Assembly: GCA_973895155.1 (NCBI GenBank)
Contig: OZ316891.1
Location: forward strand, 27,905,145-27,969,144
Reading direction: 5' to 3'
DNA: 64,000 nucleotides
Source: Marsupella aquatica
Taxonomy: Eukaryota; Plantae; Marchantiophyta
The notes under the pieces were generated by a model. That model searched no databases. It had not been told where the DNA came from and was given only the letters and a program-made list of their open reading frames with translations. Positions 1 to 48,500 of the stretch are shown piece after piece. A program made the translations under genes and the position numbers. Each line of letters starts with the position of its first letter. Within the stretch, counting starts at the first letter, position 1.

Positions 1-1653
1 GCATCCCAATGCTCATATGTCCCAGTAAAATTCGGGTAGACATAAGTATTAGGCGCGGACTCTTCTCTCTCTGCCTGCCCAAGATCAGGGTTTACTGGTT
101 CTAATTGCTAATTCAGTCCCCATTTAGAAAGACCTAAGAAATTTAACTATCTTCGAGCTTTATTGTTTGTTTTGGCAAAATCTTCCTTTGCGGCCAGCAG
201 CTGAGGCCCAGCGTCCACGATGTCCGATACATTTTTCAAGACATAAGTAAGCTGGCTGGGAAATGCCTTTCTCCTCAATCTCAAGAGATGATTTTTCTGG
301 AGTCTGCTCACGTATTGCTCTTGCTTGTCCAGAACCTGAACAGCTATTTACCACAACTGAATCAAGTGCCCGAGTTCTGACCAAGTTGTCCTTTGTCTGT
401 CTGCTGTTGATTTCTGATTGCTACTTGTTGGATTTGTCTGCTATGTTCAATTCAGTTTGTTGTCTTGTTGTCGTCTGACAATGTTTGTGGTGCAAGGTGA
501 GCTTGATCTCTTATTATTACAATGTAGTCCTTAGTTTTCCATTGTATGATGTTTTCCTTAGTCTGTCTATGTTCCTCAATGAATTGGTTTCCTTACTCTT
601 CTTTTGACATCCCTCTGTATCATAGCCCTTTTCTTTTCTCTTTTTTTTACTGAAGAGAAGTGCAAGCATGTATGGTGAATCCTCACTTGATTCCAGCAGC
701 GACTCTGTAGAATTTTGTCGCCAAAAAGTTTCAGAGTTTCGTGTGTGGTTTGCCAACTGCTGTGCCACCTCAGAGAATTCCTTAGTGGCTTTTGTACAAG
801 CCTTGCTCTTCAACTATGGTAATTTACAGCTAACTGTCTGATGTTCACACAACATCCATACACAGCAATGAATACAACTCCATGAATACAGCCACATGAT
901 TTCCTTTGGTCTGCAAACTGGACAAAACTAAACTAAAATCAGCTTGGTCAATTTTAAATCCTTCGTAAGGGTCTCTGACAGCAGCCCGGTATAGTCATTT
1001 GTGCACGAAGATAGAGTACGGTGCAGCTTTTGAAAAAGTGGGTGGACCAGCAGCTTGTTGAGAGTAAAGCAACTTATGGTTCTGTAACAGATGTGTGCAG
1101 CAGCTTAAGATGTAGAAGGCACACAATAAAACTTGATTTTTACAGATTTAAAAAAGGGCAGGGTGAGTGAGCACTGCATGTTGAACTCACAGGTCCGAAT
1201 CTTGATTTGATTTCGCTGCTAAAATTCGTATCTCTTGCCTGAGTCCCAGTTTGCTGGAGTTTTGTTGCTCTCTGTGCTTTGTTGTGCACATTGTTGTGTT
1301 TGCTCTGTCCATTTTAAAACTTGAGAGCCAAATGAATGCTTTGCTGAAACTCAATTGCTATTTTTTCTGTGTTGCCCTTACAGATTTTAAAAAGGCAGGG
1401 TGAGTGAGCACTGCTGTACAGCAAGCAAAGGCATACAGGTTGCAATATTTGTGATTGCTTCCAATCATCTAGGCCAAGGTTATTTGCGCTGCTCAGTCCT
1501 AAATGCTTTGCCATCTATAAAGCATTGGTTTATGTTGCACCCTTGTGGTTACATGTCATATTTTATGCTGCACCCTCATTCTTTTGTGTCATACTGCACC
1601 CTGTTATTCCTTCTTGTTTCACAATCTGATGTAGGGTCTGAGTGTGCAGGACC

Positions 1654-2313
1654 ATGGCTCGCAATAAGCAGAAGGCCATGAATCGTTGCAGAGGTGAATC
1701 CTCTCAAGCACCTCAATTGTCCTTATATTCAGACATTGAGATTAACCAGAATAGTCCACATGTATGTGCGATTTGTGATGAGGGAGGGGATCTCATTGTT
1801 TGTGATGGGCCTTGCCACCGACATTTCCATAAGAATGTTTCCTGTCCTTTGGGTCAGCAATGGCTATGCCCAACTATATCCCTCGCTGATGGCCATGTTG
1901 GAGAATGGCTTTGTGTTGATTGCAAGAATGAGGAACATTCTTGCTTTAAGTGCCATGTGTCTGGAAAAATTGGTGAAGAGGTAAGAAAATGTCCAGACTC
2001 TCTCTGTGCCCGGTTTTACTGTCGGCAGTGTTTGGTTCCTGGCACAGCATCATGTGGACTCCATATTTGTCTTACTTGTGGACAGGGGCCCAATGATGGG
2101 GCTAATGGCTTTTTGGTTCAGTGCATGAGGTGTCCTAAGGCATGGCACAAAGACTGCCTGCTGTTTATCCAGCAGAGGGGATTTGCCCATGATCGAACAA
2201 TTTGGGATCACTCAGCGCATGGGCAGCCCAAGAAGGGGATGTTTTACTGTCCTGACCATGACATTGACCCTACACTAGGCACTCCTGCTAGGAGCCACAT
2301 ATCTTGGATTTGA
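1654..2313 (+). CDS. Stand-alone EDM2/NSD-type multi-PHD zinc-finger protein (219 aa), intronless, apparently CACTA cargo
   Basis: CAICDEGGDLIVCDGPCHRHFH...WLCVDC...CFKC...CARFYC..C...CGLHICLTC...CMRCPKAWHKDCL...FYCPDHDIDPTLGTPARSHISW. The Cys/His spacing and the YCxxHxID..LxTPxRxH end match my recollection of the PHD module of plant EDM2. ATG at 1654. Confidence 0.85.
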   Translation: MARNKQKAMNRCRGESSQAPQLSLYSDIEINQNSPHVCAICDEGGDLIVCDGPCHRHFHKNVSCPLGQQWLCPTISLADGHVGEWLCVDCKNEEHSCFKCHVSGKIGEEVRKCPDSLCARFYCRQCLVPGTASCGLHICLTCGQGPNDGANGFLVQCMRCPKAWHKDCLLFIQQRGFAHDRTIWDHSAHGQPKKGMFYCPDHDIDPTLGTPARSHISWI

Positions 2314-2910
2314 TTGAGGCTGGATCGAACACAAACTTGAGATAGAGCTTTTTGATGGTTTCACGTGGACTTAAACAATTTTCAGAGTGCTAAAACATGT
2401 GGACTATTTATATGCAGTTTGATGAACTCCTCATGTATACACACTCTACGACAGTGCATTGCGGATTGAGGCAATTAATTTTGAGAAATCAACTTTATTA
2501 TCTTTTCCAGGGTAGGATTCTGATTTTCAAGCATGTACTTTGAGTGTGACTTTCCTCCATATTGATGTCTAAACTTCACTTGTAAATTTGTCACTGGTGT
2601 CACAAACGTTACTTATTCCAGACCTGTCTGCTCACATTCCTAATAGGCAAACAAATACTGGAAATGATGAAGGCACAGAGATTTACGTTCATAGTATCAT
2701 TCTGATGACACTGTATGTGATGCTCTATTTGTATGCAAGGAGAAGGTGCCCTACTACAGTGGATTTGAGAAACTGGGCTCTGTGGGTTTGAGCAATTGGA
2801 CTGTGGTTGGCATCGGTTGTACAACTGTGACGGTAGGCCCAATTTTGTATGCATGTCACTCTGATTCAGTTTGAAAATCATAGTTTGAATACAATTTCAA
2901 TCAAGCTAGC

Positions 2911-5900
2911 ATGGCACAATTGCCACAGAATACGTTAGGTGTGGGTAGAACTCCAAAGTTGCCGCTCTTCCATCCAGCTAGAGTACAACATCGTGATGAT
3001 GCTTTGTGGGTTCGAGAACAGAAGGCCTGCCACAAGAGTGGGGACCATAAGATGTACTGCCCTTGTGTGAACTGCAAAGGGAATTATAGGACTAATCGGA
3101 ATACTGCTAGACTGCACCTTATTAAACATGGTCGGTACCCTGCATGTCGAGTGTGGGTGGGAGAGGGACAGGACTCTTCTGATGAAGAGTGGGGTGCTGA
3201 CTACATGTCACAACATGGCCCTGAGGCATTGAGGGTAGCAAACCTTCAGCAGGCAACCTGTGCACAACAGCCAACTGTAGATGTTGAAGAACATTTATTT
3301 GTAGATGTTCCAGAGTATCCAACTGTGGATGTTCCAGAGTATCCAACTGTGGATGTTCAAGAACATCCAACTATAGATGTCGAAGAACATATCAGGGCTC
3401 TACTGGAAGAAACGTTGCTGAGAACCAGTGAAGAATCCCCTGAGCATGAGCTAGATGATCAGGACCGTTTTGACTTGGATTTTGTACTTGGGGATGATGA
3501 GAGTGAAGGAGGTGCCCATCCTGTAAACCCCCTTGAAACCTCCAAAACTCCTGTGGAGACTGATCCTGCACAGTTATCTTTAGATGCAGCAATGCAACCT
3601 TTGTTCCCAGGCAGCAAAATAGATGTTGTGTCATTCATGTTGCTTCTGCTGAACATCTGTCATGGCCATGGATTCTCAAACAAAGGAGTGAATGCATTGT
3701 TGTCTTTGATGGGGGAGCATGGTATGCCTACAGAGCATAATCTGCCCAAGAACTTATATGCTGCAAAGCAGCTATTGAGAAAGCTTGGCTTGGATTATGA
3801 GAGAATCCCTGTCTGTGAGAAAGGTTGTATGCTCTTTAGGGGTGAGAATGCCAAGTTAGAAAACTGTTCAGTGTGTCAGCAGCCCAAGATGAAGAGAGTG
3901 GGGAATTCATTACAGGCAAGGAAGGTAGTGCGGTATTTCCCTATAATTCCCAGGTTGAAGAGATTGTATGCCACTGCTGGTACATCTAAACTCATGACTT
4001 GGCATCATGAGAATAGAAGCACAGACAACATGGTTCGGCACGCAGCAGATTCAAAGGCTTGGAAGCATGTGGATACAAATATTGATCGGGAATTTGCAGC
4101 TGAACCAAGGAATGTGCGATTTGGGTTGGCACTTGATGGGGTGAATCCCTTTGGGAATAATTCCACAGCTTGGTCTACCTGGCCAATACTGTTGTTGAAT
4201 TACAATTTACCTCCTTGGCTTACCACCAAGAAGTTCTTTGTCATGCTAGCTATGCTGATTCCAGGACCTGATTCAGTAACAGAGGAACAGCTAGACATAA
4301 TATTGGGCCCATTCTATGAGGAGTTGGAGCTGTTGTGGAAGAAAGGAGTGCCCTGCTTTGACAAATTGCCACGCCCAGGATTGTCTCAACACTTCAACCT
4401 TAGGGCTGTGCTATTGTGGACAATCAATGATTACCCTGCATATGGTTTAATATCTGGACAACAACACTCTGGATACAAAGGATGTGTCATCTGTGGGCCA
4501 GAATGTGTGGCACGTGGTTCTAAGCACTTGCAGAAATTAGAGTACAGTGGCCACCGTCGATGGTTAGCAACAAGGCATCTTTTTCGTAGACCAGATAGTG
4601 CACAATACTTTGATGGTGCAATTGAGAGTCGACCTGCACCGTGTAGAATGACAAGCTCTGATAGAAAGAAGTGGGGAGACGAGACAACAGAATATTTGAA
4701 GAAGGGAGGAACCAAGGTTGAGGATGAGAAATGCCCCATAAAGGTGCATGGAGTGAAGAGGGCTACTGGTCTGTACAAGTTGCCCTATTGGAATGTAAGA
4801 CTCCATACTACTACAATGAATTTCTGCAATCTCTTCATATGACTTTGAAATATATTCTCTTCATATACTTCCTGTAGCCCAGATTTTGTAATTGTTGTAT
4901 TCAATGCACTAATTTCTGAATTGTGTCCACTGCACAAACTACTGCCCAGTGATGCCAAAAGTTGTATTCAATGCCCTAATTTCTGAATTGTGTGTCCACT
5001 GCAGAAACTACTCATTAACCATTGTCTAGATCCCATGCACTGTGAGAAGAATCTTGCACACAACATTGTGCACACTATCATTGGGACCAAGGACACTCCT
5101 TCTGTGAGAGAAGACATGAAGCTCTTACAGGTGCGCCAACACCTATGGCTTGTACCCAATCCAGCTCCCAAGCGTAAGGATGACAAATTGTTGATGCCCC
5201 CAGCCCCATATTGCCTGAGCAAGAAGGAAAGAACAAGGTTCTTGGAGGTTTTATTGACCTTGAAAGGGCCCACTGGTTTTTCAAGTTCTTTGGCAAAGTG
5301 TGTTACAAAATCCAAGAAACTCTCTGGGTTGAAATCACATGATTTCCACCAACTCATGCAACAGATTCTCCCTCTGGCAACAATGGGATTACTTGATGAA
5401 GGGGTTCGCTTGGCCATAGCTGGGGTGAGCAATATCTATCGCCAGATCTGTACGAAGGTGTGGGACCCTTCAATGTATGAGAATTTGATGATGGATGTTG
5501 CATTCACTCTCTGCATTTTGGAAATCCATTTTCCACCAAGCTTCTTTGATGTCATGACCCATTTAATGATTCACCTAGTGGAGGAATTAGACTTGTGTGG
5601 CCCAGTTACAGGCAGATGGATGTACCCAATAGAGAGGAACCTGAAGGTATTGAAGGGTTATGTACGAAACAAGGCACGTCCAGAGGCTTCTATGGCTGAA
5701 GGCTATGTATTAGATGAGTCTTTGGGATTTCTTTCTGAATACATGATTGATGCAAAGGGAGAGGGAAAACGAACCTGGGAGTTGGAGGAGGATGCTGGCG
5801 TTGCAGGCATTGTTTTGGAAGGGGCTGCAAAGGCGATAACTTTGGATTGGTCTGAAATGATGGCCATGCATCATTATATATTAGAGAATGAAGAGACAGT

Positions 5901-6904
5901 GGCTCCATGGTATAGGTACATAAACCCTAGAAACTCTCCTATCCTTAGGCATATGGATCATAATTATGTTTCCCCATTGTGTTTGTATATTCATGGTGGA
6001 TCGTGCACTAATGTCTTCAGTGTTGTTGTTGCCATGCAGGATATATGATGCTACCAATGAGACTGTTACCAAACGAAGAGTGGATTTCCGGAAGGAGTGG
6101 ATGAGGAAGCCTGCCAATCGAAGAAAACCAGTGGAATTTCCCGTAGACTGCCAAGAATTGCCACCTTTCAGGGAATGGTTTCAAACATTAGTCAATACCC
6201 ATAATTTTGAGAAAGAGTCTGAGCGGTCATTACTATCTGCATACTCCACACCACCTAGTTTGAAGGCACGACTGTATAGGGCATGTAGAGCCTATGGGCA
6301 CCATTGGAGGACTATTCCATCCTTGGGGTGTTTGAGTGATTGTGATTCTGGTGCTTTCAGCACTTTTGATTCTGGGATGGCTTCTACATTCACTGAGAAG
6401 CGAGTGGACAGGTCTGGTGCAACCATAGAAGAATCTGTACAGTATGTAGGGGCCTTGACAGATATCTTGGTACTGAATTATGGCAGCTTGAGGAAAGAGG
6501 TGATTCTTTTCAAAGGGAAATGGGCAGATCCATCATGGACTCCTAAATCCTCTGCCAGTATGAGGTATACCAAGTCTGGTCTTTGGCAGGTGAATTTCCA
6601 TAGAGAACTGGGTGTGTCCAAGAAAATGGATTACGTTTTCCCAAAGCAAGTGGAGCAGGTTTTCTTCCACCCCAATGAGAAGGGGATAGCATGGAGAACA
6701 ATCCTCCACAAAGAATCCAGGTCCACAAGGGTGTTAGGTGATTACACAGACGTTGATTTCCATGCTACAATGGAAAACAATGTCAAATTACACATCGAAT
6801 TGGCTAAGGCCTGTAGGTCCAGAGAAAATCCAGGACCAAGTACTGGTCCCAAACGAGGCAGAGATGCAGAGGGATCTGCAAGAAAGGGCAGGCCTAAGCA
6901 GTGA
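2911..6904 (+). CDS. tnpD: CACTA transposase (TnpD/Tnp2-like), spliced 2911-4794, 5005-5915, 6040-6904; about 1219 aa, frame intact
   Basis: N-terminal CPCxxC...HL..HG finger, RNVRFGLALDGVNPF, WPILLLNYNLPPW, WTINDYPAYG, LDPMHCEKN, LKSHDFH, FFDVMTHL..HL, RWMYPIER and a DUF4216-like C-terminus. GT-AG junctions give a 3660-nt continuous frame. Confidence 0.93.
3271..3390 (+). repeat. 24-bp in-frame tandem repeat (about 5 units) encoding PTVDVxEx in the transposase linker
   Basis: ccaactgtggatgttccagagtat-like units; protein reads PTVDVEEH-LFVDVPEY-PTVDVPEY-PTVDVQEH-PTIDVEEH. Confidence 0.8.
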
Positions 6905-6994: not shown

Positions 6995-9900
6995 GTTGGT
7001 GAATGCAGCCTGTGAAAGGAAGATTGCAAGGGTTGTCACATTCTGTGAATCCTTATGAGGAGGCCCGAAATCGGAACATAGAGCATAATGTCAGAATTAT
7101 GCGTGATCTAGGACTGGGGCCAGACTGCAAGCTGATGTGTGTGTTGATATGTCTATTGCAAATTTGATTCAGTAGATGGAGTTGTCAGGTTCATGTTCTG
7201 TTTTCATATTCCAGATTGGTCTCATACTAGTATGGATCCTGTACATAAGTACTAGTGTTATGGTGTTGTAGATTCATTTTGCATGTATGTTTGATCTGCA
7301 TTGGTGTATGTTGATGATTGCTTTGTTCCTTAGAGGCCCAACCACACATGTACAACGAGAGAGAGGAAAGCCTGCTTTGGTGAAAGGTACTTCAACTGAA
7401 ACATTGCCAAAGAGGAGGAGCTCTAGACTATCAGAAGTTACCAAGGTGAACATGGCAGAGTTTGGTGATGATGGCTATGGTTCTCCTTCTGAGTATGACA
7501 CTGAGGATTCTGACATTGGAGGGTCAGAACCAGAGAGTGCACAACAGGTAATGCTTGAACTTCATCATCCTAATAGGAAGGGATCCTTGTCCCTTTTTCA
7601 AATTATATGTTGATATGCTTACGTTGTCCATGATGTAGGTACAGAAACAAAATCGTGGTCCTAAGAAGACTGGGCCTGGTGGAGGTGGGCTAGTGAGATG
7701 TTGGAAAGACCCAGACACTGGACTCTTATATGAAAGTGAGTGGATTGTACTGTTCTACTTTTCAGGTGTGTTTGGAAGTTGATATTCTACTTGGAAATGA
7801 AATTAATTGAAGTGCTTTGGTGTTGTGTGTTTGTTTAGTGGTTCCATCAGCATCTGAAGGCAGATCAGGTCAATCTGATGTACTACATTCCAGAGGATCT
7901 TCAGGTAATACACAATCTGCTCGTGTTGCATATGCAAGTACATTTGCTCAACTTTTCAATCATGTACATATTTTTTGATTGAATGCATGTGTGTGCATTG
8001 CAGGAGGGGCCTCTGAGATGCGCAGGGAACGAAGGCATGCTAAGAAGCAGTTTGATAATACTGCCAAACAACGAAGGGATTGCGGAGAGGTGCCCAAACA
8101 CATTAAAGTGAGTATTGTACTTGTTTGTAGATTTAGACAAATCTGATCCTCTCTGTTGTTGTGTGTATAAAACCTGGACTCTGCATAAATTCCAGAGTTA
8201 TGATCTGACATTGTCTATGAAATGCAGATTTATGACAATGATATTGATGATTCTGATGGCAACAAACAATACTGGCTGGAGGAACTTCGTGGCAACGTAC
8301 TCAGAGTCTTTGATGTATCAAAGCCAAAATGGACTGATCATCCACAAGTTCATACAACCACAGTGTGGAATAACATGGCAGCTGAGTGGGAGTATGTGGG
8401 TGGGGAATTTATTAACACCAAATTCCAGAGTCATTGTCGTGGCATATTGAAGAGAGAGCGCCATAAAATGCATGTTTATTGGAAGAAAGTTTGCAATGAG
8501 GATCCAACCAAACTTGGGCCATCTGGTGTTGATCCAAAGAAATGGGCAGCTTTGGTATCTCATTTTACCAGTCCAGCATTGATATCTTTGAGTAAACAGA
8601 TGACTGATAAAAGAGCACGAGTGCAAGATACCTCTCACTTTGGAAGGGGAGGGCATGCTGCAGCAGCAAAGAGAATGGTAAATTGTCTATCATTTTCACT
8701 ATCAATTCTGTCTTGTTTGTGAATCTTGATGAAAACAAACTCTGTGATTTCTCATTCATTGTGTGTTTGAACAGAAGCAGAAGAGAGGATCAAGCCCAGG
8801 TATATCTGACCTGAAAGAAAACCATGGTAGTCAGGGTTCATTGCCAAAGGTGACAATGAGCCCATCATTGGCAAGTGCAGAAGGTCAGACTGGTAGTTTT
8901 GTGGGAGCAAAGGTGAGCCCATCATTGGCAAGTGGGGAGGGTAAAAGTGCTAGCTTACTGGGGCAAGGAAACAGACATGGATCAGCTGTGAGTATTGTCA
9001 TACCAATTTGATTTGTACATCATTCTCCATTTGACAGAGCCAGTGTTGTGTCGTTTGTAAGTTTGACAGTGAGACTGTTGTGTTGGTTTGTGGTTCATTT
9101 ACAGACCCCACATTCAAAAGAAGAGATCACTGCCATTGGGGCTGTGAAATTGGATGTCGCTGAGTTGAAAGGCACTGTGAGGGAGTTGACAAACATGATG
9201 ACTACGTGGATGGCACATCACCCCAGTAATGCACAAGTTCCAACAGTTGTGCCTAGTCACAGTAAGTTGACTACAACTACCAAACAAGGTAGTAGAAAGC
9301 GATCTCTTACTTTTTCAGGCGATAATGAAGGTAAAATTCTCTATCATGTATACACTGTCCATTCAATGTAATTATTGTGATGTGTATATGTCATTGCATG
9401 TTTATAATGTTCTTGCATGTTTTTAGTGTGATTATATGTTGCTGGTGTATACATGTTTGTTTATGCATTTCTTTTGTGTGTGTTTTATGACAGCATCTTT
9501 AGGGGAGCCTCCTGTGTCGCAGGGAAGACCAACTGACACAGCTAACAGTACTCTAAAGCAAACTGAATTGGAAGTGAACCTTTTGCCATCTAAGTTGCCC
9601 AAAGAAGCCATTTCAGATGTCTTTCAGTTGCCAGAGGATAAGTCGACTCAGTTGACACCAGATGTAACCCCAGAATCATCTGAGTTGCCAAAAGAAACTC
9701 CCATTCCAAGTGAACAGGATGACACTCCATCAACTAGAAAGGGAAAGAAGAAAAGGAAGAAAGGATCCTCAGCAAATGCATCACCTGCACAGAAGAAACC
9801 AATGCAGTCTCCTAACCCCGTTGCAAAGGTAAATGTGTGTTTGATTTGAGTGTTCTTCTATCTTTCAATTTCTGTTTATTGCATTTTTAACAAAATGTGT

Positions 9901-10170
9901 TGTTCACAGTTTGCAAGAGGAGATTTGGTGAAGATGAAGAGCGTTGTGGACAATTCCATGATAGTGGCAGAAGGTGAGGTGACAGGGCTGCCAGGAGAAG
10001 ATAAGTTTCATTGTGCAGATTTTGAAAGCCCTTTCTTGCGAGTGCGTGTGATTGAAGTGTTTGTAGATGTGGCATTGCCATTTGCCAATTCAGGGGAGAA
10101 CCAGTCTAAATTATCTGATGTGAAAGGGATGAATGCCCTATGGAACTCTAGATTGCTTAAGAAGCAATAG
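6995..10170 (+). CDS. Multi-exon TnpA-like second CACTA gene (Ptta/Transposase_24-like core, Tnp1/En-Spm-like last exon); exon boundaries approximate
   Basis: Core exon ~8228-8677 (KKWAALVSHFTSP...HFGRGG) and last exon ~9910-10170 (VAEGEV...RVRVIEV..DVALPF...LSDVKG..ALW). Colinear paralogous exons occur at 43.4-46.5 kb. Confidence 0.75.
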
Positions 10171-11240: not shown

Positions 11241-11253
11241 TTTTCTACTAGTG

Positions 11254-13395
11254 TGATGCATATGCTCACACAACAAAGCAGAATAGGATCAAGTTGGATC
11301 CTACATCCAAGAAATATATTTTTCTTGGGTATTAGAGTGGTGTGAAGGCCTATAGGCTATGGGATCCTATTGCCTGTAAGCTCGTTGTCAGTAGGGATGT
11401 TTCCTTCAATGAATCCAGATTATTGAAGGAGGGGGAGAATACTCAGGTCTCCCGTACTGACAAAGGAAAATCTCTTATCCCGGATCTGGTTGAGGGGGAG
11501 ATTAATCATGAAGTGCATGATCAGAGAGAAGGAGGTGCTCCAAGCATGGAGTTGGTTCCTGTGCCTGAGGAACAAGAGGAGCTTGTTGATGCTGGTGAGC
11601 AGCAAGTGGATGCTGCTGAGCTTCAAATTGTACCACTAGACGCAATTCAACCGGAGTCATCGGCTAGAAGAACATTTGGTCGCACTGTACGCGCTCCTCC
11701 TAGGTATGGACAGTGGGTTGATTCATCTCAACTACAAGAGGATGATTTTGCAGCTGATGATGAGGGTGATGCATTAATTTTGGAAGAAGGGGAACCTTCT
11801 TCATTTCATGAGGCAAGTGCTTCAAAGGAGAAGCAGAAGTGGACTGCAGCAATGCAAACAGAGATGCAGTCACTGAAGGACAACAAAACTTGGGAGCTTG
11901 TTAAGCTACCTAAGGGTCAGCAAGTGGTGGTCAACAAGTGGATTTACAAGCTCAAGGATAATTCCGCAGGAGATGGATTGAAGGTCTACAAGGCTAGGTT
12001 GGTAGCAAAGGGATTCACACAAGAGAAAGGTGTGGATTACAATGAGGTCTTCTCACCAGTTGCTAAGTACTCTACAATACGGCTATTGTGTGTGCTTGTT
12101 GTAATGTTTGGTTTGCTGCTAGATCAGATGGATGTTGTCACAGCTTTCCTCTATGGCACCTTGGAAGAGGTGATCTTCATGAGACAGCCGCTAGGTTTTG
12201 TGAAGAGAGGACAGGAGGAATTGGTTTGCAGATTGCTGAAATCCTTGTATGGGTTGAAGCAGTCACCAAGACAGTGGAACAAGCGGTTTGACGATTGGAT
12301 TCGGTCACAAGGTTTTCACATGAGTGTGTTTGACCCTTGTGTATATTTAAAACTGGTGAAGAATGTTGTCTTTGGGTTCATTGTTTTAGTACTTTATGTG
12401 GATGACATGCTTATTGCGGCCATGGATAGATCTAAGATTGTTAAGCTTAAGGCATTGCTAAGTATATAGTTTAAGATGAAGGACCTAGGGCCAGCTAAGA
12501 CGATTTTGGGTATGGAGATCACTAGGGACTTGGAGGCTAATAAGCTATGGTTGACACAAAGCAGTTATGCGAGGAAGGTAATTGCTAGGTTCAACATGGG
12601 GATAGTAAGCCAGTAAGTACCCCTTTGGCTCCACACTTCAAATTGTCATCAGCTTTTTGTCCCACAGATACGACAGAGAAGAGGCTGATGTCAAAAGTTC
12701 CTTATGATAAGGCAATGGGAAGTCTCATGTATTTGATGACTTGCACTAGACCTGATCTTGCCATGGCTATGGGCAAGGTGAGCAGGTACATGTCGAATCC
12801 AGGGAAGGTACACTGGGAAGCAGTGAAGTGGATTATCAGGTACTTGAAGGGTACCGTGGATCATGGTCCTTTATTTGATGCAAATGCAAAGAATGCGAGA
12901 TCATTGACTGACTATGGACAAGATCTGGACAGAAGGAGATCAACAACAGGGTACGTGTTCACACTTGGCGGTGGATGCATAAGTTGGAGGTCTACTTTGC
13001 AAAAGTGTATTGCTCAGTCTACTACAGAAGCGGAGTATGTTGCAGCAGCGGAAGCAGCGAAGGAAGCGATTTGGTTGGATAGACTTATCACTGAAATGGG
13101 ATTGCCACAGGGGAATGTGAAGCTCCATTGTGATAGTCAAAGTGCGCTCCACCTTGCTGTGAACCAGGTGATCGATAGTAGAGTGAAGCACATAGACGTC
13201 AGGTACCATTTTATCAGGCAGACTGTGTTTGATAATTTGTTTGAGCTAGTCAAGATAGACGATAAACTCAACCCAGCTGACACATTTACCAAAGTGATTC
13301 CTTCGGAAAGTTTCTCTAGACATCGTGACGTGCTGCAGGTTTTTGCAATTGCGTCACAAGTAAGGGTTTTTCTTAACATTCGTTGTAATTACTGA
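11254..13395 (+). pseudogene. pol: Copia pol (RT/RNase H) with in-frame stops and a frameshift
   Basis: Stop in GY*SG near 11335, stop at 12467-12469, and a frame change near 12600 between ORFs 11342-12469 and 12625-13395. Confidence 0.88.
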
Positions 13396-13555
13396 TATAT
13401 GCTCTTCTTCACTCCTAGTAATAGGCTACGACTTAGTTCTGGTTTGCTCTAGTTAGAGAGAGGAAACCATGTTGGTTTTCATCCAGAACTTCCCGCTGAG
13501 GAATCATATAGGTTAGCAGTATTACCCTCCCCTAGACCAGAGTCAAGGGGGAGAT

Positions 13556-16589: not shown

Positions 16590-17219
16590 GTATGTGGAGG
16601 CCCTACTCCTGGAATACTTGTGCAAACACATTTTGGCGTTGCTGCTTCTCCTTCTCCACCAAATTAGCTCTTCAATTCTGAAGATTTGAGGGCCTCGCCT
16701 ACTAACGAGTTTGCTCAGAACGGAGACACTCTTCCACCCTTTTCTCCCGTAGAACAAGCTACTCTCTTAGACGAAGTGGGGAACACGGACAGTTCGAACT
16801 ACATGCTTTGAAGCTGCTGTCAGGCAATTCAGTGGGGCGCAATGGAACTAGTGTCGATAGTTCTAATGAAGCGTGCACTGCGGAGCTGCTTTCATGGAAT
16901 TCATTGGGGCGCAATAGAACTAGAGTCGATAGGTCTCTTGAACGGTGCACTGCGAAGACGGGCGTTCATTGCCACTTGCCGAATTTGTCAAGATGAGGGC
17001 GAGCTCAGGAACCTCGACAGTCCATGCTCTTGCTCTGGTTCGATCAAGTACGTCCATAAAAAATGTCTCCAGGACTGGTGCGACGCGAAAGGAAATACCA
17101 TGTGTGAGATCTGCCAACAGCCTTACAGAGATGGCTACAGAGCTGGTCCTCCATCTCGTCCCCAAGTGGTGGCCAACCATATGGGCCAAATTGCAAACCT
17201 TGGAGCCGTAACTAGCTGA
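16590..17219 (+). pseudogene. Intronless RING-CH (RINGv/MARCH-type) E3 ligase-like gene, copy 1, frameshifted and truncated
   Basis: CRICQDE...LDSPCSCSGSIKYVHKKCLQDWCDAKGNTMCEICQQPY (C4HC3). The upstream part shifts frame relative to copy 2 and has a 69-bp internal tandem duplication at ~16812-16953. Confidence 0.8.
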
Positions 17220-19599: not shown

Positions 19600-21783
19600 T
19601 CACACCTTCTTAAGCCAATGACATCAAATGTTAGTTTATCTAGTACGTGAGTCCTTCGTTCTTTAACATACACGGAAGATAGTGATGGAAAGAAATTTTT
19701 AATTAATAGAAAACTTCATAGGCTAGCTATTATTTCGTGCAACTTAGTTGACCGCGCGCAAAGAATTATGCTTGATGTACTCAGAATGTGGTTGTGTTGG
19801 TGGCAAGACATCGATCAGTCAAAATTTGATATAGCCACGCACGAGAAGCTTCCGAATATCAGTACAGTTAGAGTCAACCTTGCTTACGAACCAGTACTAG
19901 CTGTCCGCAAGTGAGGGTAAACCCTAAAATATGCATTCTAGGCTAATTAATCTATTAGGACTAGAGCCATTTCAAGATTAAACCTACGGAATTTGATTTC
20001 GAAGCCCCTTAGTGAGGCAAGGATGTACTATACTAAGGAATAGGAGGGTGTAACTTACGTGATTCTTGACTAGATGAAAAAACATGCGCAAATGTGACTG
20101 ATGCCCCTGTTTGAGCAAATAGATTTAACATTGATCGACAATATATATGACTGTGATTCAGAAGAAACTTGTGCCTTGCAAGAACCAATACGTCTCGAAC
20201 GTAGCAAAGAAAGGTGAAGTACCTCGCCTTGAAATGTCAGGCCGGGAATTCAAACCATCAGAAGGAAGCTAGGTCTGATCGTGCGAACTTATTCGATCTG
20301 AGTAAGAAAGGACTGATGTTCTGTCGGCAGTAAAGATGCGATGAGCACTTGAAAAAAGTTCTCTAGCTTGACAGTGGCATTCGATCCGGAACAATTTCTC
20401 TAGCTTGACAGTGGCATTCCAGATCCTAATTGTTCCGTTGAAGGCCCTGGAGGCCCAAGGGATGTTTAGGACTTAGAGCTACGTACGGTTGCTCTGATGA
20501 GAATGGGGATTCTTGTTATTGTCATAGATGGGTAGTAAGGGACTACAGTCTTCAGCGCATATAGCGTATGCTCAACTTCAACTATACGCAGGGACTTGAA
20601 CTTGAAGATGGAAGAGGCACAGACGACAAGGGTAACCAGGTAATGTAGAAAGGTCCTCCACTCTTCTATAGATAAACTATGCTAATACTCCAAATCATCC
20701 ATTTAAAACTAGAGTAGCATGGGCTCATACTTTGTTCAAGTATTAATGTCAGCATTGTGGCCGTAAAATTCGATACTATAAAGGAAATGAAGTATGTTAA
20801 TTACGTAGTGAAGACTAGCCACAGTGATGCAGACGATCGCAATTAATGTTACAATAAAAGTTTTTTGCAACAGTGAAATATATATATATCAAATCTCCAT
20901 GCATTCAACAGCTATGTTTCTTTGATAAGAAGAGTCAGAAACGGATTTAGGACGTTTCTATACACAAAAGAGTGAAATCATTGCCCGAGTCGTTTAAAAA
21001 TGTGATGAGAGCAATATGTAAAAGGTAGAGGAACCGCGTGGCGTTAATTTGTCCCAGTGCCTTATCGAGGTTTAATGAGTAACTGGTTGATGTCGGACTA
21101 CAACTTTCTCGAGGAGATATTGAGGCAAGCGGACGCTGCCAAGCCACTACCATTTCGGCTGGCTGGTGGTGGCAAGAGTGAGGTAATCTTACTTAATTAA
21201 CTGGTAGACCCACACACTAGGGAATTTTGTCTGTACCGGAATTTTGTCTGTACACTCTGGGCACCGTTCAATCAAACAAAACTTACATTCCCCCTCAGGC
21301 TCCCACTGAAGTTTCATCTCTGCCGTTGTACCCAATAGATGGGTTCTTTTAGATGAGTGGAGGAATTGAGAGATGAACAATGACTACAGCAGGAGGCTGG
21401 AGTGCTGGCTGGAGTGGTGGATGTAGTTAACACTAGCTGACTATTGACAGGTAGGTTATTGTGCAGCATTTTGGATTGGAGAAGAGTGGAGTGCAGGACG
21501 TAGATAGCTAGCGCGCACTGACTATTGACAACGTACTAGGGCGAGTGGAGCAGAAGTTACTTAAGAGCTAGTACATAGAGGACCTACTCCAGTATTGCTA
21601 ATGCAAAAACGTACAGTTTGGTGTTCTTGTTCTCCAGCTCTACAACCGCTACCTCGCTCCTCCAAACTTTTCTGAAGATTTGAGACCTCTCCTAGCTGCG
21701 AACAACTTTGCTCAGAACGGAGACACTCTGACAACTATCTTTTCCGCAGTAGGACAAGCTGCACTCATAAACGAGTGGGAAAC

Positions 21784-22221
21784 ATGGATACTTCATGCGC
21801 TTCTCGGCTACTGTCAGACAGTTCGTTGGAGCGCAATGGAACGAGGGTTGACAGGTCTAGCGGAGCGTGCACTGCGAAGACAGGTGTCTTTGCCGCTTGC
21901 CGAATTTGTCGTGACGAGGACGACCTCACAAATCTGGATACTCCATGCTATTGCGCTGGTACGATAAAGTACGTCCATCGCAAATGTCTCCAGGATTGGT
22001 GTGATGCGAAAGGAAATAAGGTCTGCGAGATCTGCCAACACCGTTACAAAGATGGTCACAAAGCTTGTCCTCCATCTAGTCTTCAACAGGAGGCCAACCT
22101 TGACGAAGACGCCCAAATTCCCAATTTATTGGCCGAAATATGGGCTCGACTGGACGCTGCCCATGCGGCTGGTGTTGCCCAACTACAAGCCTACACTGCC
22201 CAACGGCAGGTGGGTCGGTAA
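21784..22221 (+). CDS. Intronless RING-CH (RINGv) protein, copy 2 (upstream part frameshifted, may be a pseudogene)
   Basis: CRICRDEDDLTNLDTPCYCAGTIKYVHRKCLQDWCDAKGNKVCEICQHRY. About 0.9 kb including upstream sequence (~21250-22080) is homologous to ~16250-17160. Confidence 0.78.
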   Translation: MDTSCASRLLSDSSLERNGTRVDRSSGACTAKTGVFAACRICRDEDDLTNLDTPCYCAGTIKYVHRKCLQDWCDAKGNKVCEICQHRYKDGHKACPPSSLQQEANLDEDAQIPNLLAEIWARLDAAHAAGVAQLQAYTAQRQVGR

Positions 22222-26383: not shown

Positions 26384-27555
26384 ATGTCCTCTTCCTCTGA
26401 ACTATCCAGTAGTGAGTACTCCTCCGATGACGATATACCCCCTCCTCCTCAGCCCGAGGTTACTGGTCCTCGTGGTCCACCCCGAAGACTTTGTGACTGC
26501 GCCAGATGTGTGGGCCAAATTTCTCAAAAATCTTATGTGTGTGCTCAACATATTGAGAGATATGGACGTCATAGAGGTCTTACTCCCGGGGCTTCTTCAT
26601 CCCATATGGTAAGTTTGTTTCAATTGATTGCCGTTCTTTACTGTTATTTTTAGAGGTGAATCAATGTTTACACATATGGTTTACACATTTGGTTGTTTGT
26701 GGGTGTTTGCATGGAATAGGGATCCAGTATGCGTAGATTGGTGACACCACCACCCTATGTCCCATCACAAGGAGTTTTAGATGCTATAGGCAATGCACTT
26801 TCACAAGCCTTGGGTTTGGGAATTAGTACCAGTCATGGGACAGAAGGGGAACACCCTCATGTGCCCACTAAGACACGAAGACCCCGGTCCAGGCCCCAAT
26901 CCAACAGGAGGCCACGAGCACCCAATGACCCATCCAGAACACTAGTTCAGGGTAGGTGGGGTGTTTGTTCATTCACTGGCAAGTGTGCCTCTATCATCAA
27001 GGATTGGGAACCTATCACTCTTGGCTTGCCTTATTTTACAGATTTTGATGAGGAGATTGTGGTTTGGGGTAGACGTTGGATTGTGAAAACTTCCACACTT
27101 GGAGAGAGACATGGATATGGAGTATTTGCTTGTGAGGATATTATCATGGATGAGGAGGCCAGGGTGGGTCAAGTGTTCGTGGTAGAGAGGGTCCTACTTT
27201 GTTCCCATACGGTGGACCCATCTACAAGAGAAGACATTGGAACATGATCCTTGCACAACATCCTGAGTGGAAAACATATGCTCTAGAGATGGATACTTTT
27301 GATGGTAGCACTAGAAGGTATAGTGAGCAGCGGGTGATAGATGGTGATCCCATACGTAATGGGAATATTGCTGGTTTCATAAATAGTACTGTGGGGACTC
27401 GGCCCAAGCGTAGGGCCAATTGTGAGTGGGTTTTTACTGATGGTCCAATGCCGGCACCATATGGCACGACATATCATAAGGACCATTGCTTAGTTCTTGC
27501 TACTAGGACCATTAGAGCAGGAGATGAGTTATTCACACACTATGAGTGGGATTAG
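26384..27555 (+). CDS. Zn-finger exon (26384-26608) spliced to a SET-domain exon (26720-27555); one frameshift near 27170
   Basis: Exon 1 has CDCARC...HIERYGRH (CACTA transposase-associated finger). SET motifs are VKTS...GYGVFACEDI, FPYGG, GNIAGFINS, NCEW and ATRTIRAGDELFTHY. Phase-0 GT-AG junction. Confidence 0.8.
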
Positions 27556-31465: not shown

Positions 31466-32391
31466 GGGGTCTGTGTTTGTGGATATATAGCTACACGGAT
31501 ATATAGTTAGATTTGATGATATGAAGATTTCTCTTCTCGGTAGAATGGAGAAATATGTGCTTCTCAATTATCAATAAACTTATGTTTTGTAAGTATATCA
31601 TTTTCAAATGTTGTTTTCTATATCTCCCATCCCTACCCCACACTCACCACACCTTTTGGTAGACTTTATGCAAAGAAAACTCATGTTGCTTGTAGTCCTC
31701 TATCCTCCATGCTTTCCTAATCCCCCCCTAGCTGTTCTCCTTATTACTTGTACCCACCTCCCTCCTCCTTTCTTTCATTGTCTGTCCCTCTTATTAAACC
31801 CTCCTTCCTCCTTCCTCTCCTTGTCCCAACCCCTGGCTTTCTATTTCAACCCTATACTTTCCTTACTTTCCACCCCTGTCCCCCACTCTTACCTATACAA
31901 CCTAGCTTCTCTCCTCCCTCCTAAACCTATACCCTTAAACCTCACTAGTAGAAAATGGGGCCTTTTATGACTATGACACATATGACTTATGTGCTCAAAT
32001 GACAAAATGTGTAAATGACATAACATAAATGACATTGAAATGACTGTCCAAAATGACGGGGTGCAAAAAATGACTAATACTTGCAATAGTGTCATTTAAA
32101 CCAATGAGCCAAATGACTTTGACTGCTATAATGACAACAATCATGAGTTGTAGTCATTTTGGACAGTCTTTGTGAATGACACAATTAACAAAAACTCTGT
32201 CATATCAGTGTTTCACATATGGGAAGTCATTTCAGACGACGGTGACTAATGACTAATAAATCAAATATGCAAATATCAGTGTTTAAAAATGTTAGTAGTC
32301 ATTCAAACCAAAAGTTATAAATGACATGATAAACAACATATGACTATTTTGAGGTTTATGGTTTAGTATATGTTTAGGGTTTAGGGTATGA

Positions 32392-35286
32392 TTAGCCGGC
32401 CATTAGGGATGCTACCCACTCCACATGGTGCGGGATGGGGTACTTGTACACCCTGAGCCACTAGTTATGCCACTTGGCCTCCACAACACATTTTAAAACA
32501 CACATTTTGCATCATGGAAGGGCATCACCCAACTTTGGGCAAAACACTCCCAACTTGTATGACTTTGGAGTCATTTGCCCAAAGGGGTGCAAACCATTCT
32601 AATTTGGTCATTTGCAAGGGATCTTGAGTCATTTGTGCAGTTGACTAAAAGTTTTTGTCATTTGTGGAGTGCCGAGGGGTGTCATTTAAGCAAATGACAC
32701 AAAAATAAGTCATTGATGATGTCAATGCGGCAGTCAAGCATGCCATGGACAATATGACTCCTTGGCATCGTTGGGGGCTTATTCGCAATATACGTGATCG
32801 TAGCCGGCCATTAGGGATGCTACCCACTCCACATGGTGCGGGATGGGGTACTTGTACACCCTGAGCCACTAGTTGTGCCACTTGGCCTCCACAACACTTT
32901 TTAAAATACACATTTTGCATCATGGAATGACATCACCCAACTTTGGGCAAAACACTCCCAAGTTGTATGACTTTGGAGTCATTTGCCCAAAGGGGTGCAA
33001 ATCATTCTAATTTGGTCATTTGCAAGGGATCTTGAGTCATTTGTGCGTGTGACTAAAGGTTTTTGTCATTTGTGGAGTGCCGAGGGGTGTCATTTAAGCA
33101 AATGAAACAAAAATAAGTCATTGATGATGTCAATGCGGCAGTCAAGCATGCCATGGACAATATGACTCCTTGGGGTCGTTGGGGGCTTATTCGCAATATC
33201 TGTGATTGCAGCTGGCCATTAGGGATGCTACCCACTCCACATGGTGCGGGATGGGGTACTTGTACACCCTGAGCCACTAGTTGTGCCACTTGGCCTCCAC
33301 AACACTTTTTAAAATACACATTTTGCATCATGGAATGGCATCACCCAACTTTGGGCAAAACACTCCCAAGTTGTATGACTTTGGAGTCATTTGCCCAAAG
33401 GGGTGCAAATCATTCTAATTTGGTCATTTGCAAGGGATCTTGAGTCATTTGTGCGTGTGACTAAAGGTTTTTGTCATTTGTGGAGTGCCGAGGGGTGTCA
33501 TTTAAGCAAATGACACAAAAATAAGTCATTGATGATGTCAATGCGGCAGTCAAGCATGCCATGGACAATATGACTCCTTGGGGTCGTTGGGGGCTTATTC
33601 GCAATATCTGTGATTGCAGCTGGCCATTAGGGATGCTACCCACTCCACATGGTGCGGGATGGGGTACTCGGCAACCCTTGGCCACTAGTTATTCCACTTG
33701 GCCTCCACAACACTTTTTAACACACACATTTTGCATCTTGGCAGGGCATCACCCAACTTTGGGCAAAACACTCCCAAGTTGTATGACTTTAGGGTCATTT
33801 GCCCAAAGGGGTGCAAACCACTCGCATTTTGTCATTTGCAAGGGATATAGAGTCATTTGTGCGCTTGACTAAAGGGTTGTGTCATTTGTGGAGTGCGAGG
33901 GGATGTCATATGAGCAAATGACACAACTAGGGGTCATTCATGATGTCAATAGTGCAGTCCTGCATACCAGGGACAATATGACTGCTTGGGGCCTCGGGGG
34001 GCTGATTGGCCATATTGGTGCTGTTAGCCGGCCATCAGGGACGCTACCCACTCCACATGGTGCGGGATAGGGTACTCGGCAACCCTTGGCCACTAGTTAT
34101 TCCACTTGGCCTCCACAACACTTTTTAACACACACATTTTGCATCTTGGCAGGGCATCACCCAACTTTGGGCAAAACACTCCCAAGTTGTATGACTTTAG
34201 GGTCATTTGCCCAAAGGGGTGCAAACCACTCGCATTTTGTCATTTGCAAGGGATATAGAGTCATTTGTGCGCTTGACTAAAGGGTTGTGTCATTTGTGGA
34301 GTGCGAGGGGATGTCATATGAGCAAATGACACAACTAGGGGTCATTCATGATGTCAATAGTGCAGTCCTGCATACCAGGGACAATATGACTGCTTGGGGC
34401 CTCGGGGGGCTGATTGGCCATATTGGTGCTGTTAGCCGGCCATCAGGGACGCTACCCACTCCACATGGTGCGGGATAGGGTACTCGGCAACCCTTGGCCA
34501 CTAGTTATTCCACTTGGCCTCCACAACACTTTTTAACACACACATTTTGCATCTTGGCAGGGCATCACCCAACTTTGGGCAAAACACTCCCAAGTTGTAT
34601 GACTTTAGGGTCATTTGCCCAAAGGGGTGCAAACCACTCGCATTTTGTCATTTGCAAGGGATATAGAGTCATTTGTGCGCTTGACTAAAGGGTTGTGTCA
34701 TTTGTGGAGTGCGAGGGGATGTCATATGAGCAAATGACACAACTAGGGGTCATTCATGATGTCAATAGTGCAGTCCTGCATACCAGGGACAATATGACTG
34801 CTTGGGGCCTCGGGGGGCTGATTGGCCATATTGGTGCTGTTAGCCGGCCATCAGGGACGCTACCCACTCCACATGGTGCGGGATAGGGTACTCGGCAACC
34901 CTTGGCCACTAGTTATTCCACTTGGCCTCCACAACACTTTTTAACACACACATTTTGCATCTTGGCAGGGCATCACCCAACTTTGGGCAAAACACTCCCA
35001 AGTTGTATGACTTTAGGGTCATTTGCCCAAAGGGGTGCAAACCACTCGCATTTTGTCATTTGCAAGGGATATAGAGTCATTTGTGCGCTTGACTAAAGGG
35101 TTGTGTCATTTGTGGAGTGCGAGGGCATGTCATATGAGCAAATGACACAACTAGGGGTCATTCATGATGTCAATAGTGCAGTCCTGCATACCAGGGACAA
35201 TATGACTTCTTGGGGCCTTGGGGGGCTGATTGGCCATATTGGTGCTGTTAACGGACCATTAGGGATGGTACCCACTCCACATGGTA
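32392..35286. repeat. 408-bp tandem array, about 7 units, two sequence subtypes
   Basis: The anchor gctacccactccacatggtgcggga recurs every 408 bp (ORF track offsets 32645/33053/33461 and 33879/34287/34695/35103). The later units are near-identical. Confidence 0.95.
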
Positions 35287-36140
35287 TTTTGAAGTCATTT
35301 CTAAATTGTTGTGTCATTTATAAGCTCGTGAGTGAACTTTCTGGTCATTTGTGTAGTGTCGTGAGATGTCATATTTGCAATTGACTATAGTACAAGTCAT
35401 TCCATGTGTCAATGGCAGTGTCATTTAATCCTTCTAAGGCAACATGTCCGGTGAGGGCCCCAAGTGTTGCAAGTTTACCCCTATTTGTTGATTTGCCAAA
35501 AAATTAGGGTCATATGTGGCCATGACTAAATTGGATGGGATTAGTCATCTAATATGTCATTGTCTAAGTATGACAACATCCACCAAATTCTATTTTACCA
35601 ATGTAGAGACGGTTCTCTCAGGGGATTTGGAGACATGCTTTTGGGGGGATTTTACATGTATATTAAAGCGACTATGAGGGGAGGGATGTTACCATGGCCT
35701 CCTTTTACTTTAAGGGGTTTCATGGGTCCCCCTTCATCACCACCACCACCACTTCCCTCTCCCCGATTTGGCATTTGTTTCCCGTTCCCATTCCTGTTGG
35801 ACGTTGCATCTCCACCGTCCACATGTCATCCCCTCATGCCCTGGCACTGTCTTCCTTTAGTCGCGGGAACCTTGTGAAGCACCTAACTCACATTGGACTC
35901 CGTTTTGTGAAGAACATTGGCAGAGCATCTTGAATGTCGAGGGTTTCTGGCATTTGCGCGTAGTCTTAAATGAAGGGTTTATCGTTGCAAGGCAGAGTCG
36001 TGTGCAGAGTTCCACTTACCACATTCTCACAAGCAACGTCTTTCACAAGTGCGGGATTGTATTGGGGACTTTAGTTGCAACCTCTAGGCTGCATCATAGG
36101 GTGAACAAGTGCGAAGGAGTTTCAGGGTTCTCAGCGGCTG

Positions 36141-37560
36141 TCCTGCCATCACATTTTGTCTCCTATTGCGCCTATGCATTGTGCTTTTTGGCAAAGGACC
36201 CTCGTTTGGCCTGGGTTTTCTTCGGGCATTTTCCTCCAACGCCCGTCATTTGTTAACATAGTCGACGACATGTGTATGGAGTCTGCCTGATCCGGGCCTT
36301 GCCTTCTCGCAACTGTCGTTAAATCTCTACGTTGCGTTCCTTTTGCTCTACTGCATCCTGCCTTTGTGTTCCCTCTGCTTTCGGCTCTGCATTTTGGTTA
36401 GTCGATCGAGGTTTAGGCGACCTTGGTTTTGGGCTGTACTCATCGGGAGGCACGCAAGCTTGCTATAGAGGAGCTGCGCCGAGGCCGGAAGGCTTCTCCT
36501 TTTGCCATATAGTTTGCTTCTTGGTGGCCTTCAGTTTAGTCCTGCTTGGTGGCCTTCAGCTTAGTCCTGCTTGGTGGCCGAGACTACATTGTCCTGCGAG
36601 TGGCCAAGCTCTACTACAAGTGAGTTGCAATCAGGGACCTGCTAGCAGCTGCCTGCAAGGAAGGGGCGACCCGCTGCTGCAAGGGAGGGGTGTGAACGGA
36701 GCGGCTACCTACTGCTTCGGGGATTGGGCTAAGTGCGGCTGCAACTAGGTATTTTGTCCATGCTATATAAATCCTACTGCTTGCAATGTGTGTTGTAATC
36801 TGTTCTTCCTGTGATTCAATTTGTTGCTAATATTCTATGTAGAGCTCTCCTGCCATCACATTTTGTCTCCTATTGCACCTATGCATTGTGCTTTTTGGCA
36901 AAGGACCCTTGTTTGGCCTGGGTTTTCTTCGGGCATTTTCCTCCAACGCCCGTCATTTGTTAACATAGTCGACGACATGTGTATGGAGTCTGCCTGATCC
37001 GGGCCTTGCCTTCTCGCAACTGTCGTTAAATCTCTACGTTGCATTCCTTTCGCTCTACTGCATCCTGCCTTTGTGTTCCCTCCGCTTTCAGCTCTGCATT
37101 TTGGTTAGTCAATTGAGGTTTAGGCGACCTTGGTTTTGGGCTTTACTCATCGGGAGGCGCGCAAGCTTGCTACAGAGGCCGGAGCTGCGCCGAGGCCGGA
37201 AGGCTTCTCCTTTTGCCATATAGTTTGCTTCTTGGTGGCCTTCAGTTTAGTCCTGCTTGGTGGCCTTCAGCTTAGTCCTGCTTGGTGGCCGAGACTACAT
37301 TGTCCTGCGAGTGGCCGAGCTCTACTACAAGTGAGTTGCAATCAGGGACCTGCTAGCAGCTGCTTGCAAGGAAGGGGCGACCCGCTGCTGCAAGGGAGGG
37401 GTGTGAACGGAGCGGCTACCTACTGCTTCGGGGATTGGGCTAAGTGCGGCTGCAACTAGGTATTTTGTCCATGCTATATAAATCCTACTGCTTGCAATGT
37501 GTGTTGTAATCTGTTCTTCCTATGATTCAATTTGTTGCTAATATTCTATGTAGAGCTCTC
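36141..37560. repeat. Near-identical ~710-bp tandem duplication
   Basis: tcctgccatcacattttgtctcc...ttctatgtagagctctc at ~36141-36849 and ~36848-37560. Confidence 0.93.
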
Positions 37561-43334: not shown

Positions 43335-43412
43335 TCAGGTTGTAGCTTAGTTACAATCAGGGTATGTTTGGTTTATTTAATTTAGACTAAAGTTTTATCC
43401 ATGGATGCTCCA

Positions 43413-48485: not shown

Positions 48486-48500
48486 AAATATGTAGTAGTG

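Follow-up and report, generated by a model that had tools for sequence, protein, structure and literature searches.

A histone H3-like N-terminal arm, conserved as A-R-x-K, on a short triple-PHD protein encoded beside a CACTA transposase

Introduction

Viruses, and a small number of chromatin enzymes, are known to mimic histones. The 64,000-nucleotide stretch of Marsupella aquatica DNA analysed here (hereafter the window) carries, upstream of a CACTA transposase, an ORF for a PHD-finger protein with first residues that resemble the tail of histone H3. The question raised by this locus is whether the likeness is a conserved imitation of H3 and, if so, which partner the arm would serve. A conserved H3-like arm on a transposon-borne PHD reader would extend histone mimicry to plant DNA transposons and, if its predicted self-binding is true, would hand the transposon a handle on host silencing. 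Additionally, with its 219 aa and a fold predicted at high confidence, the protein may serve as a compact model for the PHD cluster of EDM2/NSD, the ligand rules of which matter for the plant reading of H3K9me2 at intragenic transposons. No description of such a family was found in open-access titles or abstract openings, a coverage to which most subscription papers do not belong.

The PHD gene and its start codon

1654..2313, + strand: uninterrupted triple-PHD ORF of 219 aa, EDM2/NSD-type, without any other domain (ORF list, Pfam, fold)
1657..1677, + strand: H3-like N-terminal arm ARNKQKA (family consensus A-R-x-K-x-K-A/S-K-K)
1645..1657, + strand: candidate splice site, an acceptor-like TGCAG (AG at 1648-1649) followed by the start context GACCATGG
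1146..1162, + strand: candidate mini-exon of 17 nt, bordered by ag and gtgagt, probably 5' UTR
1384..1399, + strand: candidate mini-exon of 16 nt, a duplicate of 1146..1162

The 219-codon ORF opens with MARNKQKAMNRC, and translation of 1654-1689 gives M-A-R-N-K-Q-K-A-M-N-R-C, in agreement with the MARNKQKAMNR that the preliminary description had read from the first ATG. This ATG lies in the context GACCATGG; in the unspliced DNA a stop closes its frame five codons earlier, and the AG of the acceptor-like TGCAG, which ends at 1649, stands 5 nt before it. The two mini-exons are candidates; when they are combined with candidate donors, 16 splice forms can be drawn up, and in 2 of these hypothetical forms the frame gains a Met 9 or 12 codons before the ATG. 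The concern that an upstream exon might add N-terminal residues finds support in these two forms, while it is opposed by the 12 of 20 motif-bearing relatives in which the motif comes immediately after Met. An upstream coding exon of the PHD ORF is judged unlikely, and we argue for 1654 as the real start because Met stands directly before the motif in several subclades. The window holds no second copy of the PHD ORF.

Likeness of the arm to histone H3

Compared in register with the H3 N-terminus (ARTKQTARKS, as printed in PMC5415848), the arm matches at A1, R2, K4, Q5 and A7 after Met removal, exactly as first claimed, and differs at N3, K6, M8 and N9. With residue frequencies taken from the window's own long ORFs, the chance of at least five H3 matches in seven is approximately 1e-5 to 3e-5 per N-terminus, and when all 1,814 stop-free ATG starts of the window, on either strand, are compared, the arm is the sole such case. 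Removal of the initiator Met would leave a free Ala1.

The closest protein homolog (83% identity) has the N-terminus MARTKQKA. Near variants of 1625-1725 were surveyed in 66 contigs from four public runs, one of which may be the window's own source, and gave five variant rows, none in the ATG, R2 or K4 codons. One common variant is synonymous and lies in the Ala codon; the remaining four rows represent one low-depth variant reading ARTKHKA, synonymous at A7 and with C12R. Contigs of the four runs cover both the PHD gene and the transposase and contain numerous variants, and the common changes in the ORF (1659, 1884 and 2151) are all synonymous among the variants listed (40 of 477 rows); contig depth was kept out of copy-number estimates. 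A metagenome scan gave 74 pattern matches, none of which was confirmed.

A likeness of this kind could be a non-functional leftover, namely a recently captured 5' piece of an H3 gene, a chance resemblance, or the product of an ATG that is not the real start. CACTA elements do capture gene fragments, and the ARTKQ of the nearest homolog, the ARTKH of the low-depth variant, the acceptor-like AG and the two extending splice forms would all suit this explanation. It is nevertheless highly improbable on the family evidence given below. As a separate observation, the low-depth variant (1659-1687, two runs) reads ARTKH, with which plant centromeric H3 also begins; this coincidence is probably due to chance.

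Domain organization and predicted fold

1723..1764, + strand: family-specific pre-PHD1 segment [FYW]-S-x-x-E-x-x-Q-x-S-P-H, with a short predicted helix
1765..1923, + strand: PHD1, C38-C90, AIRE/CHD4-like by sequence
1933..2064, + strand: PHD2, with a PHD_NSD match at residues 94-127
2068..2310, + strand: PHD3, with a PHDvar_NSD match at residues 139-169 and a conserved C-terminal tail that ends in H-I-S-W

Pfam analysis detected PHD_NSD, PHDvar_NSD, PHD and PHD-1st_NSD on the ORF, which confirms the PHD protein of the preliminary description and places it, as a triple PHD, in the NSD/EDM2 type. The characteristic PHD-PHD_NSD-PHDvar run is present with its conserved Cys/His ligands, PHD2 being shorter than in two outgroup proteins aligned to it, and the pre-PHD1 segment stands where EDM2-like proteins have an acidic run and an Asp. 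The closest solved relatives are NSD2/NSD3 and AIRE, and the first Atlas match is a Streptophyta cluster (score 0.90). AlphaFold2 with a 62-row alignment gave a mean pLDDT of 91.7 and a pTM of 0.84, and fold searches led to PZP and NSD PHD-C5HCH modules (best Z 6.0, rmsd 2.9, 85 residues aligned), none of the fold-search matches covering the arm.

Concerning the arm itself, the mean pLDDT in the full protein is 74 for residues 1-10 versus 60 for residues 11-20, and with PHD1 alone it is 66 for the arm versus 60 for the linker. Neither the full-length nor the PHD1-only model shows a strand in residues 1-25, and no docking site of the arm was located in the latter. A complex prediction of the core (20-218) with the arm (1-30), run without alignments or control folds, scored 0.02 versus a mark of 0.34 and was counted neither way.

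A short PHD-only family and its deep motif

An HMM search of 1.84 billion representatives returned 508 matches, of which 150 were listed. The majority of the listed ones are long and have their PHD run at about residues 220-430, and a DNMT1-RFD domain is present in several; we take these long proteins to be EDM2-like from the architecture of EDM2. A word search (a weak one) found no longer homologs among 69 candidates, whereas the HMM search did find the long EDM2-like proteins. The family set consists of 25 short (~220 aa) PHD-only proteins with a common pre-PHD1 segment, among the matches listed, with a median pairwise identity of 41% over the 25 members. P0066 and P0080, which lack the N-terminal part, and P0017 and P0030, which fall outside the clade, were left out. 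In a quick tree, from which P0132 (too short), P0046 and P0056 are omitted, a 99* branch separates 24 family members from the 35 other homologs included.

The motif [AST]-R-x-K is found 29-48 residues before the first Cys of PHD1 (Cys1) in 20 of the 25 members, the starts of P0003-P0148 being gene-caller starts. The motif-less members are P0005; P0019, which reads ARP and then diverges; P0020, which is truncated; P0148, which has kept the Arg and lost the Lys; and P0004, to which the gene caller probably assigned a start at the Met in motif position 5. By alignment column, R2 is kept in 22/23, K4 in 20/23, A1 in 16/22, K6 and A7 in 16/23 each, and K8 and K9 in 11/23 each, while the linker after the arm shows 17-41% column conservation; R2 and K4 are held at about the level of the zinc ligands, in contrast to the drifting linker. 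The queries of the searches included the motif, its share being small in E-values of 1e-13 or better, and since the members are related, the family counts speak for conservation and not for independent origins.

The conserved core is A/S/T-R-x-K-x-K-A/S, and the consensus ARxKxKAKK agrees with H3(1-9) at positions 1, 2, 4, 7 and 9. Position 3 is occupied by ten different residues in the 20 motif-bearing members, including P, W, F and Y; Pro is the commonest (8/20), Thr occurs in 3/20, and Asn is found here. Q5 is present in 5/20, T6 in 0/20 and Lys at position 6 in 14/20, and Q5, as well as the T3 of the nearest homolog, is confined to a few branches. ARxKQxA was rejected as the conserved unit on these counts of Q5, T3 and K6. 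The expected conservation in sister sequences therefore holds for R2 and K4 across the deep family, and in the MARTKQKA of the nearest homolog, but not for the longer ARxKQxA.

The 20 motif-bearing N-termini comprise 12 in which the motif directly follows Met, six with two extra residues and two ambiguous ones. A1-R2-x-K4 is conserved in N-terminal register, with a Met-[AT]-R-x-K start in those 12, and Met-AR starts are spread over several subclades. A free Ala1 is not family-wide, because two residues precede the motif in 6/20 members and in L036, and neither T3 nor Q5 is kept. L036, the one full family member among 54 loci of a pattern scan, starts MSSARWKAKS, has an in-frame stop upstream and contains an internal stop; the upstream stop indicates that, in unspliced DNA, the two added residues are genuine. 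No transposase match was found on its 1.9-kb contig.

These data bear heavily on the leftover explanation. The motif persists family-wide over branch lengths of 0.2-1 change per site, and its third residue is mostly Pro or another one; on the tree, T3 and Q5 call for two changes each, and a decaying capture would not keep R2 and K4 beside a drifting linker; conservation largely refutes it. As the source of the motif, recent capture of an H3 gene was ruled out, position 3 being mostly Pro across the family.

The same data would also suit a basic targeting arm, serving as an NLS, as an R-P-K-type DNA minor-groove arm or as an arginine anchor for the nucleosome acidic patch, in which case the H3 likeness would be incidental, given that A, R and K abound in the H3 tail as well. 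The consensus A-R-P-K-x-K-A-K-K is basic, with Pro as its commonest third residue and Lys for H3 T6, the two-residue extension is tolerated, and the models lack strand pairing. Moreover, P0030, outside the clade, has an internal arm-like stretch (PRPKMKAS), and three outgroup proteins starting MARxK (grass-like, by an inferred label) run on into long basic stretches. An NLS, on the other hand, needs less than a small residue, a fixed R-x-K spacing and an N-terminal position, so that the small residue before Arg, the fixed spacing and the post-Met position in 12/20 exceed its needs. The H3 register at five positions on a protein made solely of PHD fingers also argues against this rival, and a Gly pattern in PHD1 (see below) is not expected for an NLS. 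We regard the basic targeting arm as less likely than not, but as a strong rival.

Outside the short family, a MAR start was observed in 13 of 138 homologs among the matches listed (P0022-P0026, P0031, P0040, P0075, P0087, P0089, P0102, P0105 and P0128). The short P0102, P0105 and P0128 start with MARxK and form a separate clade, which may represent a possible second origin of the H3-like start on EDM2-type PHD proteins.

PHD1 as a possible reader of the arm

Among solved structures, the best sequence matches of PHD1 are AIRE, CHD4 and PHF21A, at a weak E of 0.002-0.1. PHD1 has G-E-W before the last Cys pair and a His two residues before Cys1, and an Asp follows Cys3 in 24/25 family members; with Met left out of the numbering, the candidate contact residues here are D50 and G84-W86. 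The Asp before Cys1 in AIRE, CHD4 and PHF21A aligns with this His, which is found in 22/24 members. Of the marks of an H3K4me0 reader, the Asp after Cys3 and the G-x-W loop are hence present, and the acidic residue just before Cys1 is absent. The acidic run with an Asp at -3, present in 88/111 EDM2-like proteins among the matches listed, has been lost in the short family.

A Gly 2-3 residues before the PHD1 Trp was found in 10/12 Met-AR proteins, in 0/7 extended ones and in 10/110 EDM2-like proteins, among the matches listed. The association of this Gly with the type of N-terminus (Fisher p 7e-4, uncorrected) is post hoc, the pattern having been seen by eye before counting, and phylogenetic correction leaves three independent pairs, 1.8 changing the same way and 0 the opposite way (sign test p 0.5). 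If real, the co-variation favours binding in cis, because it ties the H3-anchoring loop to the protein's own end. The corresponding Pro and Gly of BAZ2A presumably belong to a P-x-G-x-W loop that holds the A1 amine. According to PMC5415848, P1714 and G1716 of the BAZ2A PHD help to anchor the backbone of H3 A1-K4, which pairs as an antiparallel strand, and in BAZ2A/B the mutation T3A abolishes H3 binding while K4A does not (its Table 2).

The H3 likeness is real and conserved, as A-R-x-K, narrower than the ARxKQxA of the preliminary description. The proposal of a histone mimic draws strength from the deep conservation of R2 and K4 and loses some from the lack of a universal free A1, from the His in place of Asp in PHD1 and from the loss of ARxKQxA. 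On balance, we lean towards the arm being a functional H3 mimic of some kind. More tentatively, as the preferred single reading but with somewhat less than an even chance, the arm is predicted to be an H3-like ligand of the protein's own PHD1. This cis reading is supported by the retention of the motif in 20/25 proteins at 41% identity, of R2 and K4 against the linker and of the 29-48-residue distance to Cys1, as well as by the 99* clade, the Met-AR starts in several subclades and the absence of ATG, R2 or K4 variants. Further support comes from the AIRE/CHD4/PHF21A-like PHD1, its kept Asp, the Gly pattern and the raised pLDDT of the arm. Against it count the BAZ2A/B dependence on T3 and not K4, which is the reverse of the arm's conservation pattern, and the lack of a strand in residues 1-25 where BAZ2A pairs one. 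The His at the Asp site before Cys1 speaks against a strict H3-tail-reader form, and the K6 in 14/20, unlike H3, together with an arm basic enough for an NLS, is likewise unfavourable.

Under the cis reading, Met would be removed to free Ala1, and the arm would fold back through a flexible linker of ~15-30 residues, or reach over to another molecule of the protein, so as to place A1 against the G-x-W loop and R2 against the Asp that follows Cys3. It could then compete with unmodified host H3 tails for PHD1, so that the module would either be restricted to preferred chromatin (EDM2-like, marked by H3K9me2) or engage once the arm's Lys4 has been modified. The element might thereby act on its own silenced copies, through expression, RNA processing or transpososome assembly.

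Comparison with known systems

The protein shares the PHD_NSD/PHDvar_NSD run and the C-terminal H-I-x-[FW] tail with the PHD cluster of Arabidopsis EDM2 and NSD1-3. Unlike EDM2, it is limited to ~220 aa of PHDs and has neither the N-terminal DNMT1-RFD domain nor the long C-terminal part, the 219-aa ORF being stop-bounded in the unspliced DNA and matching PHD families only. It further differs in the replaced acidic run and Asp at -3, in its separate clade, in its own ARxK arm and in its apparent location within a CACTA element. Compared with H3K4me0 readers (AIRE PHD1, CHD4, PHF21A/BHC80 and BAZ2A/B), it has the Asp after Cys3, the G-x-W loop and the best PHD1 alignment in common, but it has His for the Asp before Cys1 and an insertion with two extra Cys, and its candidate ligand is its own N-terminus, without T3.

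Other histone mimics include the ARSK of influenza NS1, the automethylation motifs of G9a/SetDB1 and the UHRF1 linker. Like them, and like the H3K9-like motif of the JC virus Agno protein (bioRxiv 10.1101/2024.11.04.621823), the arm is a short linear motif that resembles H3 although its protein is no histone. Unlike these, the candidate mimic is the N-terminus itself, in register with H3(1-9); it is joined to folds of H3 readers, and its gene is that of a plant DNA transposon. VANC, an accessory protein encoded by the VANDAL (MuDR) transposons, offers a parallel in that it too affects the state of chromatin. According to PMC5735166, however, VANC recognises motifs in DNA, and DNA methylation is lost as a result, whereas the present protein goes with a CACTA element and is of a histone-reader type made up of PHDs only. 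A Pfam scan showed no VANC similarity of the PHD ORF. By analogy, the PHD protein would work as a reader of EDM2 type with a histone mimic acting intramolecularly; it is distinct from EDM2, whose further domains it lacks, and from a canonical K4me0 reader, whose Asp it lacks, and an anti-silencing role in the manner of VANC would be hypothetical.

The arm might instead work in trans, the PHDs anchoring on silenced element chromatin while the arm recruits or titrates host R2/K4 readers as an anti-silencing adaptor or decoy. We consider this mode unlikely; its candidate partners would be WD40 proteins of the MSI1/RBBP4 or WDR5 type and K4 methyltransferases or demethylases. It would account for the conservation of K4 although PHD1 lacks the K4-side Asp, and WD40 Arg pockets tolerate an N-terminal extension. 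Enzyme substrates and WDR5 sites do not usually vary as widely as position 3 does here, with ten residues (P, W, F and Y included), and the co-variation with the protein's own PHD1 loop, though weak, points to a cis partner. In favour of action in trans, EDM2 binds H3K9me2 and affects transposon silencing (PMC7529245, PMC3632883 and PMC9910501), and HP1 is a target in trans of the viral H3K9-like motif (bioRxiv 10.1101/2024.11.04.621823).

The CACTA element and the rest of the window

2884..6904, + strand: CACTA/En-Spm Tnp2 transposase in three open frames, first ATG at 2911 (Pfam)
7272..10170, + strand: further open frames of element 1, without Pfam match, parts similar to 44614-46516 in the second element
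11241..11253, + strand: 3' terminal inverted repeat TTTTCTACTAGTG of element 1
31943-47620, + strand: second CACTA element, 5' repeat CACTAGTAGAAAA at 31943, 3' repeat ending at 47620
26386-27555, + strand: region of a third CACTA element, with a SET-domain ORF at 27154-27555 (Pfam SET, E 1.6e-5, 25.7 bits, above the cut-off)

The PHD ORF lies upstream of the transposase, 598 bp separating its end from the first transposase ATG. Tnp2 carries the Pfam domains Transpos_assoc, Transposase_21, DUF4218 and DUF4216, and the frames at 7272..10170 are presumably TnpA-like by their position. A Tnp2 transposase and a CACTA-type terminal repeat occur together on the element beside whose transposase the PHD gene lies, this locus being the only one from which a transposon linkage of the family is known; no matching 5' terminal repeat was found in window positions 1-1653. 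A Copia-type pol fragment (RVT_2, SH3; 11254-13400, + strand) directly abuts the 3' terminal repeat.

The transposase of the second CACTA is ~76% identical to that of element 1, and the element has no PHD ORF; its flanking 3-mers differ, and it contains a 408-bp unit repeated 7.1 times (32392-35285) and a ~710-bp tandem duplication (36137-37560). In the third CACTA, the SET ORF follows an ORF at 26720-27247 in another frame, and the transposase frames start just after it, at 27767, so that it occupies the slot equivalent to that of the PHD gene in element 1. This matching slot is a further point for action in trans. No PDB sequence match was found for the SET ORF. Upstream of it, a Cys/His stretch with a GTAAGT donor resembles, by eye, a transposase-associated first exon.

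A wider proposal, which we put forward as somewhat doubtful, is that a CACTA family encodes a miniature EDM2 with its own H3(1-9) mimic, the arm of which would both gate the reader and serve as a host H3K4/K9 substrate or decoy, within a swappable toolkit of chromatin cargo. If this is true, the SET domain in the sister slot would imply a swappable histone-level counter-silencing toolkit in DNA transposons.

Apart from the CACTA elements, two related RING-variant (RINGv) ORFs (16812-17219 and 21676-22221, + strand) lie in duplicated DNA, and an NIF/FCP1-like phosphatase-domain ORF (48435-49283, - strand, E 5e-15) is accompanied by unannotated minus-strand frames at 49708-56621. Finally, a 487-aa frame at 60652-62115 (+ strand) has a weak, below-cut-off match to N6_N4_Mtase (E 8.4e-4) and adjoins a 486-aa frame without Pfam match (59043-60503); from their sequences, the frames at 59043-62115 are possibly a mobile element with a DNA methyltransferase-like gene.
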